DNA of 36,306 nt from an uncultured Clostridia bacterium (lineage in GTDB: Bacteria > Acidobacteriota > Aminicenantia > UBA2199). Position numbers and translations under genes: made by a program. Shown in pieces: positions 2,751-32,104 of the stretch; position 1 is the stretch's first letter; each line of letters begins with the position of its first letter. Location: the NCBI GenBank assembly GCA_964449545.1, contig CAYVBC010000001.1, forward strand, positions 1-36,306, written 5' to 3'. Under the pieces are notes generated by a model. That model saw nothing but the letters and a program-made list of their open reading frames with translations, did not search any database and was not told where the DNA came from.

Positions 2751-2823
2751 CTTATCTCCTTTATGGGATTGCCTGAGACTGAAAAAATGGGTCTTTGGTT
2801 CAGTGATCGGGCGATGATTGGAT

Positions 2824-4017
2824 TCATTTCTCCAACAGTCGGGATACGGGGACGAATTGAACCCCCATGGCGCGAACAGCTGGGATCGTATCCCGGATCG
2901 CTTTCATGGTTGTGGGATATGGGTGTCCGATGGCCAGGGCATGTCCCCGCTTCCGGGCCATCTTTGCCACCTTGAGAATCTGGTTGCGGGTAAACTGGTA
3001 CGTGACGTTTCCGTTATTGATGTCCTCAAGGAATGTGTCTCTCTGGGCAGTGGGAATCTCCAGGCTGCGGGCCATGCGGTAGGCGATGGTGTCCGCGCTG
3101 GTCCGAGAGTCAACGAAGAACAGGTCTTCTTCCTTGAGAACCTTGAGGACCCGTTGCATGGTTTCTCTATCGCAGGTGGCCAGTGACCCCATGTGATTGT
3201 TCACGCCCTTGGCGTAAGGGACCTGGGTCTTTGCTCGCTGGATCAGGCTGCGGATGTGATTTGTGTCCGCGCCCTTCATGACAAAGTGGACGGGGTCGAC
3301 CTGCAGGTTCGGGTTCTGTGACTGCATGGGCAGATGGATGATCTGCTCAATTCCATACATATGCAGCTGCCTCGCCTCATCATAGGCATAGGTGGAGTTG
3401 GGAATGATGGCCGCGGTAATTGGGATACCCAGGTTTTTCAGTGTCAGGGCGCCACGTTCATTGTAGCCGATGTCGTCGATGATGATGGCCAGACGCCCTC
3501 GGCTGGCGGGTGCGGTGGGTGTGGCGGCCCTGGCCGCGGGAGAAGCTTTGCCTATGGTGATGAGGAAGAGGTGGGTGGCGGATTTTTCTTGACCTGATAT
3601 GGAGTAGAGATAAAGCTGTTCCTCACCCAGGTGCTGAATCTCTTCGGTTTTCCACTTGAGACCCTGTGACGTGGCCAGTTTTTTCAATGACTCGACCAGT
3701 GTTTTTCTCTGGGTGTTGTTTGCGTGAAACTTGAAATGATAGCGTTTCCGGGAATCACGGACCAGGTTGTAGGAGATCCCCGAAGCATCCATTGCGGAAA
3801 TCAGTTTATCGTGAAAGGACTCCACCTGAGGATGTCCGGCCGGTGTTTGCTTCAGTTCTTTTTTGGGCAGAATATGTGAAAGGAGAAAGGTGGGGCGTCC
3901 GTTGCGGTGGTCCATGTACTCCAGCAACAGGACGATGACCAGTGCCAGAACGGCAAAGACGAGCAGATATGCGACAAAGTTTCCGGAATTACGCGATTTC
4001 GCTCTGCGGCGGACCAT
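2824..4017 (-). CDS. Divergent polysaccharide deacetylase family protein (YibQ-like) with an N-terminal membrane anchor
   Basis: 397 aa. There is an N-terminal hydrophobic helix (FVAYLLVFAVLALVIVLLL). The C-terminal half (LAIIIDDIGYN...NNHMGS...AIGHPYP) resembles the YibQ/DUF610 fold. It sits in the conserved envC-ctp-yibQ position. Confidence 0.75.
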   Translation of the reverse strand: MVRRRAKSRNSGNFVAYLLVFAVLALVIVLLLEYMDHRNGRPTFLLSHILPKKELKQTPAGHPQVESFHDKLISAMDASGISYNLVRDSRKRYHFKFHANNTQRKTLVESLKKLATSQGLKWKTEEIQHLGEEQLYLYSISGQEKSATHLFLITIGKASPAARAATPTAPASRGRLAIIIDDIGYNERGALTLKNLGIPITAAIIPNSTYAYDEARQLHMYGIEQIIHLPMQSQNPNLQVDPVHFVMKGADTNHIRSLIQRAKTQVPYAKGVNNHMGSLATCDRETMQRVLKVLKEEDLFFVDSRTSADTIAYRMARSLEIPTAQRDTFLEDINNGNVTYQFTRNQILKVAKMARKRGHALAIGHPYPTTMKAIRDTIPAVRAMGVQFVPVSRLLEK

Positions 4018-5114
4018 TATGATTCCTCCAGGGCGCGAAGCGCAACATCCAAGGGATCCTGGTTTGGTTTCACCAGAAGTTGTGGCTGTACGGGCCGGTT
4101 TTGAATGGGTTTGCCTTTCCAGAAGAAGTGTCCGTCCGTAATCAGTGCGATTCCGCCGTCAGGAAGTGGGGCTCGCTTCAGATGGGCATTGTATCCCCCT
4201 GTGGCACTTCCAACGAGAATAACGCCGGACTCCTTCATGAGAGTGGCCAGTATCTCACCGTACATGATGGTGGTGGGTCCCACAAGAGCGGCAATATGTA
4301 ACGGAACCTTTTGATAAGAGCCTGGCCTGAGGCGCTGGCTTCCCATGCGGGTACGCAGCTCCAGCTGGTTTGTGGGAGAGAGCAGGAGGTCGGCAACGGA
4401 AAGGCAGGATGAAAGGTCGCCGGATTGATATCCCCTCAGGTCAATGATCCAGGAACGGGAACGCAACCGGGAGATATCGCGGGAAAGCAAGCGGGTGGAT
4501 TCGGCATCCATCCAGGCAAGGGAAAGGTATACCGCTTTGTTTTTCAGCAGGCGGGGTCCCCTTCCGGACCGGAGAATGGTTGCTGGAATGGAAAGCCGAC
4601 GGGAGCGTTGCTGGTCCCGGCTCAGAACGGTGAGCTTGAATTCACCGGGTGTGGCTGTGTATAGATGCAGCCTTGCAAGGTGGAATGTCAGACGGGTCAG
4701 ATTGAAACCATTCACACTTTCAATACGGTCTCCCACTTTCAGGGAACCTTGTCCCCTGTGAGAATCCGGTTCTAAACGGGCGACTTCAAAGTGCCGGTTT
4801 ATGGGGTGAATCCATATCCCGGCCCAATACCCCCGCCCCATGCGAAGATTTTTGTCTGTGATTTGATGATGGGGGGGGATGTAGGCGGAAAAACTGTCCA
4901 GTTCGCGCATGATGCCGTTGTAGGCTCCAGCGAAGGCCTTTTCCGGCTGTACCCAATCTACGTAGTTTTCACGGATCAAACTGGATACCCCAGGATAGAG
5001 TTGGCGTGCTTCAATCGATTCGCTGGAGGAGGAATGACTTCCCGGCTTGAACCAGAGTACCGCGGCCACAAGGACAAGGAGCAGCAACAGTAGTATTCGT
5101 CTTGGATTGCGCAT
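4017..5114 (-). CDS. S41 (C-terminal processing peptidase)-like protein with a signal peptide and PDZ domain; catalytic Ser and Lys appear substituted
   Basis: 365 aa. It has an N-terminal signal sequence (RRILLLLLLVLVAAVLW) and a PDZ-like segment (GSLKVGDRIESVNGFNL). The S41 core (ALVGPTTIMYGEILATLMKESGVILVGSATGGYNA...LPDGGIALITDGHFF) aligns by eye with xSASASEIxAGAL...VG..TFGKG. The stop overlaps the yibQ-like start by 1 nt (TAATG). Confidence 0.7.
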   Translation of the reverse strand: MRNPRRILLLLLLVLVAAVLWFKPGSHSSSSESIEARQLYPGVSSLIRENYVDWVQPEKAFAGAYNGIMRELDSFSAYIPPHHQITDKNLRMGRGYWAGIWIHPINRHFEVARLEPDSHRGQGSLKVGDRIESVNGFNLTRLTFHLARLHLYTATPGEFKLTVLSRDQQRSRRLSIPATILRSGRGPRLLKNKAVYLSLAWMDAESTRLLSRDISRLRSRSWIIDLRGYQSGDLSSCLSVADLLLSPTNQLELRTRMGSQRLRPGSYQKVPLHIAALVGPTTIMYGEILATLMKESGVILVGSATGGYNAHLKRAPLPDGGIALITDGHFFWKGKPIQNRPVQPQLLVKPNQDPLDVALRALEES

Positions 5115-6416: not shown

Positions 6417-7394
6417 TCAGGATTTGGGCGGACGATGGGTACGGTGAAACAGAAAAACCACTCCGCCCATCATGCCCACGAGGATTCGAAAACCCAGATC
6501 TAGAAATTCGGCGGCCAATGCGAAGGCCGGCGGAAAACGCATCAATGTCTGAAACCCGGCGGTGCGAACCCCAAGCCCGTTTATGGCCGGTATGGTCATG
6601 AGCAGGAAGATCATGATGGGTACATGAACAATGAATGAATGGATATCCGGAGTTTCGCCCAATGCGCGGGCGATACAATAGTAATACACCACCATGTTGG
6701 CCTGAAAAACAATGCTGATGCAGAGGCATCCGAGCAGGCTCGCCGGTTTGCGGTAGAAGGCCCACAGCGCAACCATGACCTGATGGACGCGCGGCCTGAG
6801 GCGTTTGGGCAACCTTTTCTGGATAAGGGGCAGCCAGTATGCGGATGGACGGGGATGAATCAGTACCGCGGACAGAATGGCCAGGGCGGCAAGAAGAACA
6901 ATTACAGAAAAAATAATCCGGTTCGGGCTGTTGCGGAAGGGGCCGTCAAGGAGCAATCCGATTGCAGAGATGATCATCAGGGCAGCCAGACCACTGAGTC
7001 GCTCAATCACCACGACCACAAGGGACATGGATCCCCGGGAGGTGTCGCTACGGCTCTTGACAACCCTCAGGGTGTCTCCTCCGATGGTGGAGGGCAGGAA
7101 CGTGTTAAAGAAGGTGGACATGAAGTAATAGAGAAGCAATCGTTTATAGGGGGCGGTGTGACCCTGGGCGGTAAGCAGAATCTTCCAGCGCAGGGTGAGT
7201 AGATTATATCCCAGAGCCATCAGGGCGGCCGCGGCCAGAAGCCACAGTGGGTTGGTGTGAGAGAAAACGGATATGAATTTTTCCCAGGCCGAAATGATGC
7301 CTCCGTGCCTGTGTGCCAGGGTTCGGACAAAGTAACCCACCAGAAGGGAGCTCACAAGAACGCGTACCAGCAGGGCCAGGTGTTTTCTTTTCAT
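6417..7394 (-). CDS. Flippase-like or lysylphosphatidylglycerol-synthase-TM-like integral membrane protein (UPF0104 family)
   Basis: 325 aa and polytopic, with about 8 hydrophobic segments. The motif [21 protein letters not shown] is typical of this family. Its ATG overlaps the xerC stop (ATGA at 7391-7394). Confidence 0.65.
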
Positions 7395-8275
7395 TTTGAT
7401 CGTGGGTGATACTGCCTGTATACACGCAAGAGATCTGCGTAATTCAGGGTTGTGTATTTCTGTGTGGTGGTCAGGTTGGCATGGCCGAGAAGTTCCTGGA
7501 TCATTCGCAGATTGGCGCCTCTCTGCAGCAAGTGGGTGGCGAAAGAGTGGCGGAAAAGGTGGGGGTATACCCGCTTTCTGCTTTGCATCATGGTCTGAAA
7601 AGAGGACTGCAGGATTCGTTCAATGGATCGCTCCGTTATGGCCTGACCGCGGGAATTTAGAAACACCCGTTCCGGCAGAGAAGGGAAACGTTTATTGGAT
7701 GCATTGATGTACTTTTTAAGCAGTTCACCGGAATGGCGGTTGAAGGGAACGATCCGTTCTTTTCTGCCCTTGCCCAATACGCGGACCAGGCCTTCCTGCA
7801 TGCGGATATTGTCATGAGTCAGTCCCGTTAATTCGGAAACGCGAAGGCCCGTGGCGTAGAGAAATTCAAAGATCGTCTTATTCCTCAACTCAAGATATGA
7901 AGACTCGGGGAGTCGGTTCAGAAAATCGAGCATCTCTTTCTCTGTTAGAATCTGAGGGATTTTTCTGTCGATTTTAGGAGATTGAATGCCTTCGAAAGGA
8001 TTAATTACGGTTTTCCCGCTCTGTATCTGAAAAGAATAGTAGGATCTGATGGCGTAGATCTTACGGGCCACCGTGGTCTTGTTTCCTGTCTGAAGAAATA
8101 TCCGGGAAATGAAATCTTTTGCCGCGCTACGATCGGGAGGAAATTGATTTTCCTTGAGAAATCGGAGAAACTGAAAGATATCCTGCCTGTAAGCGCGAAT
8201 GGTATGCTCGGAGAAATTCTTAATGTCCTTCAGGTAGGCCAGATAATCGGTTAAAAGTTTTCCTGATGGATCCAT
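7391..8275 (-). CDS. xerC: Site-specific tyrosine recombinase XerC/XerD family
   Basis: The C-terminal catalytic region reads [37 protein letters not shown], and [13 protein letters not shown] is also present. I place the start at ATG 8275 ([15 protein letters not shown]). The ORF-track start at 8410 would overlap trmFO by 160 nt. The position after trmFO matches the conserved topA-trmFO-xerC order. Confidence 0.88.
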
Positions 8276-25354: not shown

Positions 25355-25383
25355 TTGCTTTTCTCTTTCCCCTTTTTTATAAT
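25355..25383 (+). promoter_or_regulatory. Sigma70-like promoter of the zinc-ribbon operon (TTGCTT-17-TATAAT)
   Basis: TTGCTT is at 25355-25360, followed by a 17-nt spacer and TATAAT at 25378-25383. AAGGAG at 25406-25411 lies 4 nt upstream of ATG 25416. A 6-bp inverted repeat (AAAGCA-GGAT-TGCTTT) overlaps the -35 element. Confidence 0.5.
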
Positions 25384-25415
25384 GGCAACTGAATCGAGGG
25401 CAAACAAGGAGATCC

Positions 25416-25931
25416 ATGGCGGATCAACAACAGAGCGGGTTTGATCAAATCCGGAGGCACATTCCTGAATTTCCCGGATATGCGGATCCCTTCTCCCGTA
25501 TTCATGCCGACACCATCCTCCGTGCGTATGTGGATGGGAAAATTTCCCATGTATTGGAGCGATTGCTTCTATTTATCCAATCATCCGCGACGGAAAAACG
25601 GCTGGATTTGCTGTCTGATTTTGAAGATATCCGGGAGAGCCTGAGCGCATTGTCCGGCAGGTTGGCATCAGATGTGGCCCATGAAAGCGAACCCTGGACG
25701 TCCGGGACCATTGAGGAAGAACCGCTTGCCCGGATTCATGAGAATGACGGGGAGCTGGTCGATGCGGTTCAGTCGGTTCTTGATCGGATCATCGGGATGA
25801 AAGGCCCTGTACCGGATCGCCCTGAAGTGCTGCTTCTTAAAAATGCGGTGGACCGACTGCTGGGTCGCTTTCAGGACCGGTGTACAGAGCTTGAGGAGTT
25901 GGGGCTTGTCGGGGAAACCACCTCCAGATAA
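25416..25931 (+). CDS. Hypothetical acidic, predicted all-helical protein (gene A of the zinc-ribbon operon)
   Basis: 171 aa with a strong RBS. The composition is rich in E/D/L/R with helix-like periodicity (ILRAYVDGKISHVLERLLLFIQ, VDAVQSVLDRIIG, LLLKNAVDRLLGRFQDRCTELEEL). It has no hydrophobic segment and I recognise no family. Confidence 0.6.
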   Translation: MADQQQSGFDQIRRHIPEFPGYADPFSRIHADTILRAYVDGKISHVLERLLLFIQSSATEKRLDLLSDFEDIRESLSALSGRLASDVAHESEPWTSGTIEEEPLARIHENDGELVDAVQSVLDRIIGMKGPVPDRPEVLLLKNAVDRLLGRFQDRCTELEELGLVGETTSR

Positions 25932-26670
25932 TCATCCCGGCCGGTCACTGGAAAATCCTATCGGAGGCGCCGGAGTCAGTTTCACCTGTCCCCAGTGCAA
26001 CGCACCGCTGGATCTTCATCAGCAGGATTGCTTTATGCACTGCGTTTTCTGTGGCAGTGCCCTTTATCTTGATCTGGAATCCATCACTCGAGTGATGTCG
26101 ATACCGATTCACATTTCAGCGGATGAAGCGCCATTGTTTGTGCGCCGTCATCTGAAATCCGTGGCATTTGATGAGCGAATCTCCATTGTGAGCCGGGAAC
26201 TGCTGCTGATCCCTTTCTGGAGGGACCGGGAGAAGAAATGGATGGCCCGGGCGAGTGGAGAATATTCCGAGCCGAAGACCATGATGCCCGCCGTACAGCC
26301 CGAGGGCTTTTTTCCGGAACAACTTCCTCCTGAAGCGGAAATTCTTCCGGTGACCACCCGCCCACTGGATGAGTTGAACCTGTTGCTTTATTACCTGCCT
26401 TTTTTCAAAATGACCGTCTCACTGGGTGAACAGAAATTCCGCTTGCTTTGCAATGCGGTTACCGGTGAGGTAACCGGAGAGCAGATCCCGGTTGAGACCG
26501 GCCCGCATATCTTCCGGGTATTCCGGACGTTTCTGTTGATCTTTTTTGCCATGTTGGCCGTGGATTTCCTTGTGGACAACAACTGGATCCTGCTGGTTCT
26601 GAACGGTGTATGCTTATTTCTGGCCCAGCAACTCTCCATACCCATGATTGAAAAGTGGTTGTATAAATGA
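25906..26670 (+). CDS. Hypothetical zinc-ribbon membrane protein (gene B, paralog of C and D)
   Basis: The zinc ribbon CPQC-x14-CVFC is at 25987-26052. Aromatic motifs LLIPFW and LYYLPFF are present, and two C-terminal hydrophobic helices follow (FRTFLLIFFAMLAVDFLV, WILLVLNGVCLFLAQQL). The start is uncertain: TTG 25906 has GAGGAG 7 nt upstream, and the first in-frame ATG is at 25843. Confidence 0.65.
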   Translation: MSGKPPPDNHPGRSLENPIGGAGVSFTCPQCNAPLDLHQQDCFMHCVFCGSALYLDLESITRVMSIPIHISADEAPLFVRRHLKSVAFDERISIVSRELLLIPFWRDREKKWMARASGEYSEPKTMMPAVQPEGFFPEQLPPEAEILPVTTRPLDELNLLLYYLPFFKMTVSLGEQKFRLLCNAVTGEVTGEQIPVETGPHIFRVFRTFLLIFFAMLAVDFLVDNNWILLVLNGVCLFLAQQLSIPMIEKWLYK

Positions 26671-27662
26671 ATCCCCAGGTCCTGAACTGTAAAAATTGTG
26701 GTGGCGCGCTTCACATTGTGCCGGGTCAATGTGTGATTCGCTGTCCCTTCTGCGGGAATCCGTACTGTCTGGACCAGGAGCTTCCCCCGGCCGTGGTACT
26801 GGCCGTTCAAGTGGATGAGGAGCAGGCAAGAGAAAGAATTTTAAAGGGACTGCGGGAACCGCGTATTGAGCCCGGATTTCTCAGAAGAACATTTTTTGAG
26901 CGTGCGACCCTGTATTACGTTCCCTTCTACGAGGTTCGCGGTGTTAAGGCGGGATGGAGTATGGGAGAGGGGGAAACGGACACGTATTCCCATGTTTCCT
27001 TTGAGTATCTTGAGCCGGCCAACGACCTGGAAACACTCTCCCTGAATGTCCTGGATCGAAGCCTTGTGGAAGCCGCGATTCTCAATGCATGTCAGGTCGC
27101 TTTCCGACCGGTGGAGATGCGCAGGCGGGGCGTTGTCCTTCCCGCGCAGCCTTTCCGAAAAAACAATGTGTCCACGGACCATGACGTACGCCATGTGGTG
27201 GAAACGCATCTTCGCCTGGTTTACTTCCCCATGTGGGAGGTGGCGTACAGTTACCGGGGCATGGTGTTCAGGAGCTACTGCTCCGCTGTGGATGGTTCAT
27301 TGATTACGGTGAAAGGGTTGCGAAATCACCGGCGCAAACTGGGGCTGGCGCTGCTGGGACTTTTTTCGCTGGCCCTGTTGTTGGGCCGCATGTTGAAACT
27401 GGTGTTCGTTATATTGTCGGGAGTGTCCGTCGGACCTGTCACGCTGCTGGCTGCGGCGGGAATCCTGGCTCTGGGTGGATTGATCTGGGGCGTTCTCTTT
27501 CCATACCTGTGGCGCCTGTATGCCTTCCGGGAAGAGATTGAGGTTTCCGGCGCCTTTATGGTCACCCGGCCCGTTAATTACAGAGAAGGCCGTCTGTTGC
27601 GTTTCAGCCGTGAATTTGTCCATCGGATTACTGGCGGCGAAAAATCCCGGGGAGAACCGTGA
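26667..27662 (+). CDS. Hypothetical zinc-ribbon membrane protein (gene C, paralog of B and D)
   Basis: 331 aa with an ATGA overlap with gene B. The zinc ribbon CKNC-x14-CPFC is at residues 8-29. Motifs LYYVPFY and LVYFPMW are present, and FRSYCSAVDGSL matches FRLLCNAVTGEV in B. A hydrophobic block of 2-3 helices lies at residues ~224-290. Confidence 0.72.
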   Translation: MNPQVLNCKNCGGALHIVPGQCVIRCPFCGNPYCLDQELPPAVVLAVQVDEEQARERILKGLREPRIEPGFLRRTFFERATLYYVPFYEVRGVKAGWSMGEGETDTYSHVSFEYLEPANDLETLSLNVLDRSLVEAAILNACQVAFRPVEMRRRGVVLPAQPFRKNNVSTDHDVRHVVETHLRLVYFPMWEVAYSYRGMVFRSYCSAVDGSLITVKGLRNHRRKLGLALLGLFSLALLLGRMLKLVFVILSGVSVGPVTLLAAAGILALGGLIWGVLFPYLWRLYAFREEIEVSGAFMVTRPVNYREGRLLRFSREFVHRITGGEKSRGEP

Positions 27663-28231
27663 AACTGTTAAGCCTCAAATGCCCGCGGTGCCGGAAAGAC
27701 CTGGAGGGAGACAATAACAGCCGGGTGTTTTTCTGCCGTGACTGCTGCCTGGGTGTGGACCTGAGCCGGGGAAAAGAATCTGAATATAAAGTGGAATGCG
27801 CGCAACCGAGGATTCAGAAAGAAGCGGAGATGGCGTATTTTCCATTCTGGAAATATAAAGGGCGGTATTGGGTGGTGTCCGACGAACACAGAGAGCCTGT
27901 TTCCCGTGAGTCCACTTTCTGGGTTCCGGCGTTTTTCATAAAAAGTATCAACTCCTTCGGGGATATCGGTCTGTATTACACGTCTCGAAAAGTCAGCCCC
28001 AATATGGAGCGGTGCCGTTCGATTCCCCTTTTTCCAGCGGATCGAGGCGAAGCGCATGCGGCGATCTACCCCATGGTTTATGCCGGTTGTCTGGAATCCG
28101 GTTCGGTGTCCCGGGTGGTGGAATTGAATGTCCTGCATGTAAATCTGGTTCATGTCCCCTTTTTCAGGATGGGGCGTGAATATATGGATTCCCAGCTGGG
28201 ATGGACCTACCCTTCCGGTGCCCTTATCTGA
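27659..28231 (+). CDS. Hypothetical soluble zinc-ribbon protein (gene D, paralog of B and C; no membrane segment)
   Basis: 190 aa with a GTG start in a GTGA overlap with gene C. The zinc ribbon CPRC-x14-CRDC is at residues 8-29, the same positions as in C. Motifs AYFPFW and LVHVPFF are present. I prefer it to the antisense ORF 27668-28309 because of this paralogy and the coupling. Confidence 0.68.
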   Translation: MKLLSLKCPRCRKDLEGDNNSRVFFCRDCCLGVDLSRGKESEYKVECAQPRIQKEAEMAYFPFWKYKGRYWVVSDEHREPVSRESTFWVPAFFIKSINSFGDIGLYYTSRKVSPNMERCRSIPLFPADRGEAHAAIYPMVYAGCLESGSVSRVVELNVLHVNLVHVPFFRMGREYMDSQLGWTYPSGALI

Positions 28232-28241
28232 TTGACGCCGG

Positions 28242-28270
28242 TTGACTTCCCGTCGGCCGTTGTCTAAAAT
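28242..28270 (+). promoter_or_regulatory. Sigma70-like promoter upstream of trxB (TTGACT-17-TAAAAT)
   Basis: TTGACT is at 28242-28247, followed by a 17-nt spacer and TAAAAT at 28265-28270, about 60 nt upstream of ATG 28330. Confidence 0.45.
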
Positions 28271-29259: not shown

Positions 29260-29314
29260 TCCTGCGTCTCCGAGGAAAGCCTTCTCAACGAGAGGTGAAT
29301 TCATTTTTGTGTCC

Positions 29315-32104
29315 ATGAGGATCAAAAACCCGACAGCCTTCGGAATTTTTCTGTCACTCCTCTTCATGATTTTTCTTTCGCCCAGTGCCTTCTCCCTGGA
29401 TCGGATTGCTCCAGGCACGGTTTGGTGGGAAAAATCGGGCCCGCGTTTTGTTGTCGTCTTTCCGGAAGGGTATTCGTCACTGGGAGATGAAGTGTATCGG
29501 ACCGCGGAACAGGTGTACGCGAACCTGACGGAATTCTGGCAGGAAAAAATCCGGGGGAAAATTCGGATCCTGGTGGTTCTTGATTCGGATGTGGGAAGCG
29601 GATTCGCGACCTTTTTCCCCTACAACACCATTCGGATTGATTTGGCACAGGCTCAACCGGATGAGATGTTTAGTGGCGGCAGGTCCTCCTGGCTGAAGAT
29701 GATACTGGTTCATGAGATGACCCATCTCCTGATCATGAACAAAAGCTCGGGTTTTTTTTACGCCCTCCGTCGATTATTCGGGCATATGCCCCTGGCCTTC
29801 CCCATGGTTCAGTATCCCACCTGGCTCCATGAGGGACTGTCGGTGTACAGTGAATCCAGACTTTGTGATTCCGGTCGGCTGAATACTCCGGATTATATTC
29901 AGATGATCAATTCGATTGCCCGGGCGGATGCGTTCAGGGGGTATCTGGCCATCCGGGGGAATTCCACTCAATGGCCCGGACCTCTGACACCCTACCTGTA
30001 CGGCGCGGAACTGGTCCGTTACCTGGTCGACAGGTTTGGAGAAGAATCCCTCCGGCTCTTGGTGGAGCACCTCCGCATGGTCCCTGTTTCCCTGGGGATC
30101 TCTCCCCGTTTTAAAAGGGTGTTCGGTATGGGAATCCGAAAGACTTGGCGGGATTTCCGTGATTCCGTCACTTCGCGGACCGCGAGCCCTCCGGATCACC
30201 TGAATTGGCTGACTGGAGACGGCTGGGGGAAGCGGTATCCCGTGACCCTCCCGGACGGCCGCATGGCTTATGCGTTCAACAACAGGCGTTCCCGTCCAGG
30301 AATCCGGGTTTTTGACCCTGGCACAGGAAAGAGCTCCTGGCTTCTGAGGCGGAGGCGGATCTCGGGACTGGCCTATGATCATCAGAATCGTCGTCTGGTG
30401 TTCTCCTCACTCAAAGTGTTTCGCTCTTTTTATCTGTTCTCCGATCTGTTCACCTTTCATGAGGGGGAAAGAAAATTGATTCGCTGGAGTCGGGGCGGGC
30501 GGTTTTCCGAGCCGACTCCGGTGGTGGGGAAGCCGGGGCTGGTCTGTGTGGCACGGAAGGGAAATCGGTATCAACTGGTGTATATGAATGAACCGTTTGC
30601 AGCTCCGGTCCCGATTTCAGAGAGTTTTGCCGGCCTGTCTCACCCCCGGATTTCTCCGGATGGATGCCTGCTGGTCGCGGCCGTGAAGTACCGTTCCCAT
30701 AACTGGGGGATCGGAATATTCAATTCTGATGGTAAATTAAAGAATGTGCTCCATGTTCCGGACGGTCGCTGCAGTGTCCCTTGTTGGAAAAACGACCGGG
30801 AGATCTATTTTATTCTGGAGAGAGAGAATCGATCCCTCCCGGCACGAATCCGGCTGCGGAATCGGCGGGTTTCCCTTCTCAACTGCGAGGGGCTGGCGGG
30901 GGTCAGGGATATGGAACCCGGGAGTGACGGCGGGTTGAACCTGGTGGTGTTGAACTCCGGGGGATATGACCTGGCCGGATTGCACCGGGATCGAGTCAAC
31001 TGGTCACCTCTGGACTCGACATGGAAAATTCCCCGGGAAACCAATGGGGTTGCCGATTCTCCTGAATCCCGGCCATACAAAATTTCCCGGGAACTGGGAC
31101 CCAAGTACCTGTCTCCCGATGTGGACTACCCGTCCGGAGAGGCAAGGATGGGAGTCCGGACGTCCGGGAGTGATCTTCCCGGCCACTACACTTACAATGC
31201 ACGTCTGTTGTATGGTTTTCGAACCGGAAAATGGAGTTCACAGCTGCAGGTCACAGTGAATCGTTTTCATCCCCTGTTGACCCTGACATTGCGCAGGGAA
31301 CATCTGTTCCTGGGCAGCCGAAGTTCTGGAAATTTCACATTGACCAACCGCTTCCTGAACCTGGTGGCCGCATTCCCTCTGGTGGCCAGGGAGACATTCC
31401 GCTGGGATCTGGAAGCGGGGTTTCATCTCAATCGTATCCAGGATCGAAGCCACCTTCATTCTGAGGGAGAAGCCGTTGAGTTGAACGGCATTTCTCTTTC
31501 TCTTTTCCTCCGGTCCGCGCGGAGATACTACGATGCCATATCCTATTCCGACGGGAGCCGCTTAAAATTGATGGCTTCCTTTGATATTGCCGGAATCGGG
31601 GGGTCCTCCTCCGCGCGTTCCCTGGCTCTGGATTGGCGGAAATATGTGGCCATTGTTCAGCCCAATGTTCTGGCGTTGCGGTTGGCGGTTGCTCATTCCT
31701 GGGGATATGCCCCCAGGCTGTTCTACCTGGGAGGGACCCGGTCACCCGAAGATGTCGGGCTTGTGGAAGGCGGCCTTTTTTCGTTATTGCGTGGATTTCC
31801 CGGGGGGGTTTCCGCTGGATTCGGTGGCTGGCAATTGAACCTGGAACTGCGGCTCCACTTTTTCAAAATTGAGCGTGCGTTTCCCATTGGACCGAGTTTT
31901 GATCGTGTTTACCTGACGCTTTTCTGTGACAGCGGGAATATGTGGAACCAGCGTTTGAAAATGGATCCCACATTGTCATGGGGTGCGGAAGTGAATCTCA
32001 TCATGCACCTGGGTGCTCCCGTACACCTGGCCATCGGCGTTGCGTTCTCCACCGGGCTGAACCGGGGGCCGGCCCTCTATTTACGAATCGGGGAATCTTT
32101 CTGA
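29315..32104 (+). CDS. Outer-membrane fusion protein: signal peptide, HExxH (MA-clan, gluzincin-like) peptidase domain, PD40/TolB-like beta-propeller region and C-terminal Omp85/surface-antigen-like beta-barrel
   Basis: 929 aa counted from ATG 29315 (MRIKNPTAFGIFLSLLFMIFLSPSAFS). HEMTH is at 29711-29725 with WLHEGLSVYSE 35 residues later. PD40-like segments are present (RISPDGCLLVAAV, DGRMAYAF). The C terminus has LRGF (loop-6 VRGF/Y-like, 31790-31798), FCDSGNMW, and a terminal ...LYLRIGESF ending in Phe. The track's start at 29018 overlaps trxB. Confidence 0.82.
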   Translation: MRIKNPTAFGIFLSLLFMIFLSPSAFSLDRIAPGTVWWEKSGPRFVVVFPEGYSSLGDEVYRTAEQVYANLTEFWQEKIRGKIRILVVLDSDVGSGFATFFPYNTIRIDLAQAQPDEMFSGGRSSWLKMILVHEMTHLLIMNKSSGFFYALRRLFGHMPLAFPMVQYPTWLHEGLSVYSESRLCDSGRLNTPDYIQMINSIARADAFRGYLAIRGNSTQWPGPLTPYLYGAELVRYLVDRFGEESLRLLVEHLRMVPVSLGISPRFKRVFGMGIRKTWRDFRDSVTSRTASPPDHLNWLTGDGWGKRYPVTLPDGRMAYAFNNRRSRPGIRVFDPGTGKSSWLLRRRRISGLAYDHQNRRLVFSSLKVFRSFYLFSDLFTFHEGERKLIRWSRGGRFSEPTPVVGKPGLVCVARKGNRYQLVYMNEPFAAPVPISESFAGLSHPRISPDGCLLVAAVKYRSHNWGIGIFNSDGKLKNVLHVPDGRCSVPCWKNDREIYFILERENRSLPARIRLRNRRVSLLNCEGLAGVRDMEPGSDGGLNLVVLNSGGYDLAGLHRDRVNWSPLDSTWKIPRETNGVADSPESRPYKISRELGPKYLSPDVDYPSGEARMGVRTSGSDLPGHYTYNARLLYGFRTGKWSSQLQVTVNRFHPLLTLTLRREHLFLGSRSSGNFTLTNRFLNLVAAFPLVARETFRWDLEAGFHLNRIQDRSHLHSEGEAVELNGISLSLFLRSARRYYDAISYSDGSRLKLMASFDIAGIGGSSSARSLALDWRKYVAIVQPNVLALRLAVAHSWGYAPRLFYLGGTRSPEDVGLVEGGLFSLLRGFPGGVSAGFGGWQLNLELRLHFFKIERAFPIGPSFDRVYLTLFCDSGNMWNQRLKMDPTLSWGAEVNLIMHLGAPVHLAIGVAFSTGLNRGPALYLRIGESF

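Follow-up and report, generated by a model that had tools for sequence, protein, structure and literature searches.

Members of the YdjG/SamG family in a four-gene operon of an uncultured Aminicenantia bacterium and their possible link to SPFH membrane systems

In Bacillus subtilis, the integral membrane proteins YdjG and YdjH are needed for the membrane recruitment of PspA and of the soluble SPFH protein YdjI (also named SamI), through which PspA is brought to the membrane (PMC8581546). YdjG comprises zinc ribbons, a YpeB-related domain, and a transmembrane (TM) segment, as described by Ravi et al. (PMC11237479), and a preprint proposes that SamI restrains signaling by a SamG–SamH sensor complex (bioRxiv 10.64898/2026.02.06.704340). 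So far, B. subtilis is the only organism in which YdjI/SamI-type SPFH proteins and YdjG/SamG anchors have been investigated. Here, we analyze a probable four-gene operon (genes A–D) in a stretch of 36,306 nucleotides from an uncultured bacterium of the Aminicenantia (contig CAYVBC010000001.1, positions 1–36,306, in the following called the window). An initial annotation made from the sequence had described the operon as encoding one helical protein and three paralogous zinc-ribbon proteins of no recognizable family. We show how B and C compare with YdjG/SamG and how the genes are arranged in relatives, where an SPFH gene (here called S) usually lies between A and B.

Genes B and C compared with YdjG/SamG

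Genes B (25906–26670) and C (26667–27662; all window features lie on the forward strand) both encode a zinc ribbon and a TM hairpin. The ribbons, read from the sequence and supported by the family alignments, are CPQC-x14-CVFC in B (25987–26052) and CKNC-x14-CPFC in C (26688–26753), and their four cysteines are invariant or nearly so in every family alignment. They occupy residues 8, 11, 26, and 29 in C, as they do in D, and the spacing in B is identical, just as the initial annotation had described for this CxxC-x14-CxxC pattern. An extra cysteine at linker position 11, to which it had also pointed, is present in B and C but is not conserved among homologs and has no significance. Each hairpin consists of two hydrophobic helices. 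In B it is C-terminal (26506–26649; Kyte–Doolittle windows ≥1.6), and in C it lies at 27336–27512, as judged from hydrophobicity and from helices 222–251 and 257–285 of an AlphaFold2 (AF2) model, which was used solely for these TM helices. Where two to three hydrophobic helices had been proposed for B and C and none for D, we find two each, no third, and none in either A or D. The 331-amino acid C protein has a larger predicted cytoplasmic module than B and a conserved predicted cytoplasmic tail, WRLFAFREE. The two proteins are clear paralogs (BLASTP E-value of 4e-7 across 208 residues).

When each GTDB species was scanned in a single genome, 22 loci emerged, most of them from Aminicenantes. 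Orthologs of gene C reach down to 43% identity, and more distant B/C relatives occur in Fermentibacteria, as a single gene, and in an archaeal metagenome-assembled genome (MAG), as a tandem pair. In the family alignment, the four-cysteine ribbon is followed by a helix, an xPFW hairpin, a variable insert, a segment of the pattern LVYxPxWEVxYxYxGxxYxxxVxAxxGxV, and finally the TM helices.

For the comparison with YdjG, a B. subtilis-type sequence was recovered from metagenome contigs by means of a degenerate pattern derived from a published ydjG primer. The recovered protein is 341 amino acids long, starts with MIISYKCPNC and ends with MGGGF, in agreement with the published primers, and its gene is flanked by pspA, ydjH, and ydjI. 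A hidden Markov model (HMM) of the B/C family, from which YdjG had been excluded, matches this protein with an E-value of 8.7e-30. The match pairs HMM positions 4–253 with YdjG residues 52–333 and spans the second ribbon through the TM segment. Comparison of the B/C family with YdjG by hhalign gives a probability of 98.9%. The reciprocal HMM, built from YdjG and five two-ribbon relatives, recognizes C of the window with an E-value of 3.2e-15 (segments 5–102 and 165–253) and B with an E-value of 1.7e-10.

The whole post-ribbon module, consisting of the helix, the first xPFW hairpin, the variable insert, and a second LLPVW...NGxTG hairpin, is homologous in B/C and YdjG, and the TM segment of YdjG aligns with the first of the two TM helices of B/C. 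The proteins differ at their ends. YdjG possesses two ribbons and a single C-terminal TM segment, compared with one ribbon and a TM hairpin of two helices in B and C. Judged by these sequence comparisons, B and C are very probably single-ribbon, two-TM members of the YdjG/SamG family. The view that none of the four proteins belongs to a recognizable family is therefore wrong for B and C.

Although known from the literature, the family lacks a Pfam model. Scans of A–D with Pfam, NCBIfam, and PADLOC gave only sub-threshold ribbon matches, and PDB sequence searches with the A, B/C, and D profiles returned no more than generic ribbon matches and noise from helices. Among the non-ribbon Pfam matches in the family, PepSY (PF03413) is the most frequent, found in 7 of 20 members with a best E-value of 0.0014 and in all cases below the gathering score; a Pfam scan of B and C of the window themselves gives no PepSY match. 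These sub-threshold matches fit the published relation between YdjG and YpeB (PMC11237479). A B/C segment of the pattern LVYxPxWEVxYxYxGxxFxxxxxAVxGxx resembles the C-terminal pattern of the PepSY/YpeB domain, which has an NTF2-like fold. Classical PepSY domains are extracytoplasmic, however, whereas the B/C module is predicted to be cytoplasmic.

One relative (locus L012, 2218–3909) shows an apparent B–C fusion, an open reading frame (ORF) of 563 amino acids, which was considered as evidence for an interaction of the two proteins. We rejected it, because close to the 3′ end of gene B the frame changes at a T9 homopolymer, probably through an assembly error.

The D and A families

Gene D (27659–28231) encodes 190 amino acids and starts with a ribbon of the same type, CPRC-x14-CRDC (27680–27745; sequence and family alignment). 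It has strongly conserved motifs of its own, FFIKN..FGDIG, FPADRG, and a C-terminal YPSGALI. The D family consists of soluble ribbon proteins of about 200 amino acids and has 136 cluster representatives in a set of 1.84 billion proteins. Shallow profiles aligned D with B/C in the ribbon alone (34 columns, probability of 89%). Profiles of 46 and 20 sequences extend the hhalign alignment to the ribbon plus the first PFW hairpin (69 columns, 96.9%, E = 1.3e-10), and in this alignment D lacks the helix that lies between the two elements in B/C. Beyond the first hairpin, the alignment is of low confidence, and the second motif is not demonstrably homologous. By sequence, D appears to be a remote soluble paralog of B and C with homology limited to the ribbon and the first hairpin. 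The three-way paralogy first proposed for B, C, and D holds in full for B and C and probably in this reduced form for D, the second aromatic motif of which could not be aligned with confidence.

D is also connected to B/C in another way. Proteins of ∼410 amino acids join an N-terminal B/C-like module without TM helices to a C-terminal D-like module, which argues for a relatedness of context, not of fold, between D and B/C. These two-module proteins form about 50 clusters (for example, P0182, P0191, P0213, and P0264), and their N-terminal part carries the ribbon and two hairpins but no TM helix. We also considered D as a counterpart of the TPM-domain protein YdjH/SamH. This assignment was rejected, as hhalign gives a probability of 0.17% and D has neither a TM helix nor a signal peptide.

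Gene A (25416–25931) encodes 171 amino acids. The protein is acidic (pI 4.75), contains no TM helix, and has at least 400 homologs, none of which is named and none of which has a Pfam domain. The AF2 model, calculated with 51 sequences, has a mean pLDDT of 89.3 and a pTM of 0.86 and features four long helices in addition to a helix at the N-terminus and a conserved PGFxGY loop. On the strength of this model, A is predicted to be a soluble, all-helical bundle, which agrees with the earlier description of an acidic, helical protein. A Foldseek search of the model against the PDB found nothing significant, the best match being talin R10 with an E-value of 0.058. Its assignment as a PspA/ESCRT-III protein was examined and rejected on two grounds: A has no Pfam match and reaches an hhalign probability of only 0.06% against B. 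subtilis PspA, and its confident model finds no ESCRT-III/PspA match in the PDB.

Gene neighborhoods and the SPFH gene S

All fetched loci were annotated with HMMs and classified by gene arrangement. The order A-B-C-D recurs across genomes, but usually with S between A and B. In other lineages, A is regularly the gene immediately upstream of S. The S protein is an SPFH protein in which a low-complexity linker connects the Band_7_1 domain to a double zinc ribbon at the C-terminus. It has the same architecture as YdjI/SamI, to which it is homologous (BLASTP E = 2e-29). The arrangement A-S-B-C-D is found in L005, L006, L011, L015, L020–L023, and L039; the hosts are Aminicenantes and related MAGs and, for L039, a contig with a protein that carries the name Methylomirabilales at NCBI. 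L040 has the same four families, but arranged differently. A-S stands alone in L034, L035, L036/L037, and the P0155 locus, and L013, L016, and L018 have B-C-D alone, with a divergent gene upstream. Finally, A-B-C-D without S is found in the window, L001–L004, L009, L010, and L012. In most relatives the system thus consists of two joined modules, A + S and B-C-D, each of which also occurs separately.

Some of these loci have peculiarities. The high-GC locus L040 (5001–8655) encodes a YdjG-like protein with two ribbons, followed by D-like, A-like, and Band_7_1 proteins in this order; there is no B/C pair, and several products look frameshifted, with Arg/Pro-rich tails. In L023 (6312–8019, on a 1.28-Mb MAG contig), B and C are each split into short ORFs, reflecting either long-read indel errors or pseudogenization, and A, S, and D are intact. 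The archaeal locus L025, from a Thermofilaceae MAG, contains tandem YdjG-like genes of 323 and 314 amino acids with an ATGA-type overlap (2769–4681). About 1.8 kb 3′ of this pair lies the gene (6493–7650) for an intramembrane protease of the PrsW family that has double zinc ribbons at its N-terminus, and no SPFH gene is present within 10.7 kb.

The relatives resemble B. subtilis pspA-ydjGHI (pspA-samGHI) in several respects. YdjG/SamG is homologous to B and C over the full length (ribbon, two PFW/LLPVW hairpins, TM anchor), the S gene encodes a homolog of YdjI/SamI, and in both settings a soluble SPFH gene adjoins genes for ribbon-bearing membrane proteins. B. subtilis has one YdjG, whereas two YdjG-like paralogs and the soluble D protein are encoded here. 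Other SPFH systems (HflK/C–FtsH, QmcA–YbbJ/NfeD, and FloA/FloT with YqiJ/YuaF-type partners) likewise pair an SPFH scaffold with a dedicated small membrane partner. However, neither NfeD nor YqiJ/YuaF nor FtsH is related to A, B, C, or D, and S is of the soluble Band_7_1 type and has no anchor of its own, in contrast to SPFH systems in general. Taken as a whole, an association of the wider module with SPFH proteins is probable.

The A proteins carry a possible trace of the S partner. A loop of the sequence YADxGYSGFFD is nearly invariant in the A family and absent from A of the window, L001, L003, and L010; according to the A alignments, the missing region corresponds to residues ∼80–100 of the window protein (about 25653–25715). 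L012 has no S, yet its A retains the loop. The loss of the loop in the S-less clade and its retention in L012 suggest a contact between this loop and the SPFH partner as well as more than one loss of S. From the arrangement of the loci, the clade of the window has apparently lost S from this position.

We lean toward reading the window operon as a derivative, lacking the SPFH gene, of a conserved membrane system of the YdjG/SamG type with five genes; it would act as a sub-membrane scaffold or sensor. In the arrangement that we infer, including its physical interactions, topology, and stress or scaffold function, B and C would form an integral-membrane platform through their TM hairpins, with both protein ends and the ribbon/PepSY-like domains predicted to face the cytoplasm. 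D and A may dock onto the cytoplasmic ribbon domains of B/C. In most relatives, the YdjI-type SPFH protein would join this platform through A, the ribbons, or both, and in the lineage of the window the complex would work either without an SPFH protein or with one whose gene lies at another place on the genome. The assembly may serve as a scaffold or as a sensor for the membrane state or envelope stress. The membrane-anchored zinc complex first suggested for these genes survives in part: with two anchored ribbon paralogs, a further ribbon protein that is soluble, and a helical protein, a single complex is plausible, but a redox role of its cysteines is unsupported.

Several observations weigh against this reading. 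The 36-kb window differs from the B. subtilis operon in having no SPFH gene, with no S homolog found along its whole length, and it has no PspA or TPM (YdjH-like) gene either. The functional analogy therefore depends on the relatives and on a single model organism. Of the four B. subtilis components, two lack a counterpart in the window operon: in place of PspA stands A, an unrelated helical bundle, and the TPM-domain protein YdjH is missing, D being unrelated to it. YdjG-like genes without an SPFH neighbor occur in Fermentibacteria (L026–L030) and in the archaeal loci L025 and L038. Lastly, the AF2 model of C, obtained from a 12-sequence alignment, is poor (pLDDT 57), and its Foldseek result is uninformative.

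Some of these observations would be expected if B-C-D were an autonomous, SPFH-independent membrane complex, such as a zinc-ribbon receptor or adaptor for another client, with A-S as a mere neighboring operon. The stand-alone triads in L013, L016, and L018, the solitary A-S pairs in several loci, the absence of S in cis from the window, the SPFH-free neighborhoods of YdjG-like genes in Fermentibacteria and archaea, and the ClpS gene that follows D in L005 and L006 all speak for such a complex. On the other hand, the two modules are joined by short gaps or overlaps in at least nine loci from two phyla and are found together again, in altered order, in L040. Moreover, YdjG, the only characterized member of the family, is operonic with an SPFH protein and needed for its membrane recruitment, and in the window A is still attached to B-C-D despite the loss of S. 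On balance, we regard an autonomous complex as unlikely.

The ribbons themselves could point in a different direction. Popp et al. suggested a role in nucleic acid binding or transcription regulation for the YdjG ribbon, and by analogy B, C, and D would be membrane-tethered regulators with TFIIB-like ribbons. The sub-threshold ribbon matches of the window proteins to TFIIB, Rpo12/RPABC4, PriA, and YacG are in line with such a role, as is the DNA binding known for this type of ribbon (PMC9239133). These matches, however, cover only generic four-cysteine knuckles of ∼30 residues, none of them at a curated cut-off, and neither the operon nor its relatives include a helix-turn-helix domain, a sigma factor, or an anti-sigma partner. 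A regulator of this kind is accordingly quite improbable.

A further reading, which builds on the original proposal of a zinc or redox-cysteine complex with a possible envelope function, has a novel complex of this kind act together with the thioredoxin reductase TrxB and a 936-amino acid HExxH protein encoded downstream. Both genes are indeed co-directional with the operon in the window and in close relatives, and B, C, and D contain several cysteines each. However, conservation is limited to the four ribbon cysteines, which form a classical four-cysteine ribbon. The adjacency of trxB, the 936-amino acid ORF, a D-threonine-aldolase-like gene, and yjbQ to the operon is confined to one close clade (L001–L004, L009, and L010), within which the wider synteny is frozen, and is seen in no other locus, where ClpS, RlmN, or other genes take their place. 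This restriction argues for frozen synteny rather than for a functional association. In addition, a promoter-like TTGACT-17-TAAAAT with 10 of 12 matches (28242–28270) lies in the 77-nucleotide gap between gene D and trxB and marks a likely operon boundary, suggesting that trxB is probably a transcription unit of its own. The neighborhood comparison largely refutes this reading and makes it very improbable. Least credible of all is anti-phage defense or mobile-element cargo: a small operon of unannotated ribbon and membrane-anchor proteins resembles many defense candidates, but PADLOC gives no meaningful match (only TniQ at the level of the ribbon, E = 0.029), 50,697 phage and 72,556 plasmid records contain no match, and the operon keeps a stable position between housekeeping genes within its clade.

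With the SPFH-less derivative of a YdjG/SamG-type system as the preferred reading, the window operon would add new B/C members to a known family rather than a categorically new mechanism, with a function that we infer by analogy. The YdjG-type anchor family is widespread, occurring in Aminicenantes, Methylomirabilales, Fermentibacteria, and an archaeal MAG, and appears able to expand into a B-C-D triad, and the SPFH protein seems to have a second conserved partner family, A, which takes the place of PspA at the head of the operon. Our literature searches, which covered Band_7_1, PF13421, and COG4260, yielded nothing that describes the A or D family, the pairing of A with SPFH, or the B-C-D triad. 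A bolder possibility, which we put forward tentatively and consider somewhat doubtful, is that A, S, B/C, and D constitute an undescribed, PspA-independent SPFH machine distributed across uncultivated phyla (Aminicenantes/Acidobacteriota, Methylomirabilota, and others). A would then act on YdjI-type SPFH proteins as a new effector or regulator of the helical-bundle type, and B-C-D would be a three-paralog membrane receptor of the YdjG type. If so, receptor and A could persist and function after the loss of the SPFH scaffold, as in the lineage of the window. The comparison defines partner pairs that can be tested (A–S, S–B/C, and D–B/C), and the three natural locus classes (A-S only, B-C-D only, and A-B-C-D without S) could reveal which contacts are essential. 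It also provides provisional annotations for four families now labeled “hypothetical protein” and should be useful in annotation and to specialists working on the SPFH and Psp systems.

Operon signals and flanking genes

A, B, C, and D are real genes, as indicated by the conserved homologs that A, C, and D each have and by a gene order that is repeated in more than 20 loci. The reading frames of A (ATG at 25416, stop at 25929–25931), C, and D are those given initially, as are the overlaps of the ATG of gene C with the stop codon of gene B (ATGA, 26667) and of the GTG of gene D with the stop codon of gene C (GTGA, 27659). The four genes are probably co-transcribed and translationally coupled. 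Upstream of gene A lie a candidate promoter, TTGCTT-17-TATAAT (25355–25383, with TTGCTT at 25355 and TATAAT at 25378), and a Shine–Dalgarno sequence, AAGGAG (25406–25411), 4 nucleotides 5′ of the ATG. Both elements named in the initial annotation are present in the sequence, but while the −10 hexamer is perfect, the −35 hexamer agrees with the consensus in only 3 of 6 positions, and a consensus scan did not call the promoter, whose function is putative.

The start of gene B is less certain than its end at 26670. No ATG, GTG, or TTG occurs between the stop codon of gene A and the zinc ribbon. The likely start, as read from the sequence, is TTG at 25906, which is preceded by GAGGAG (25893–25898) and results in an overlap of 26 nucleotides with gene A. 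The alternative start, ATG at 25843, would overlap gene A by 89 nucleotides. Gene callers also treat the ortholog of gene B in L001 inconsistently, with 194 amino acids called despite an ORF of 240 amino acids.

The operon is embedded in housekeeping genes, which in the window flanks encode HtpG, TopA, DprA, TrmFO-type, and UvrD-type proteins and a polyprenyl synthase. The 936-amino acid ORF 3′ of trxB (29294–32104) has no Pfam match at E ≤ 1e-5 and contains an HExxH motif (VHEMTHLL); in the initial annotation it figures as a putative fusion of a peptidase and an outer-membrane barrel. The neighbor 3′ of D differs between clades. In L005 (6036–8311) and L006 (5437–6453), ClpS is followed by a large gene that is cut by the contig end, and in L039, RlmN follows D.

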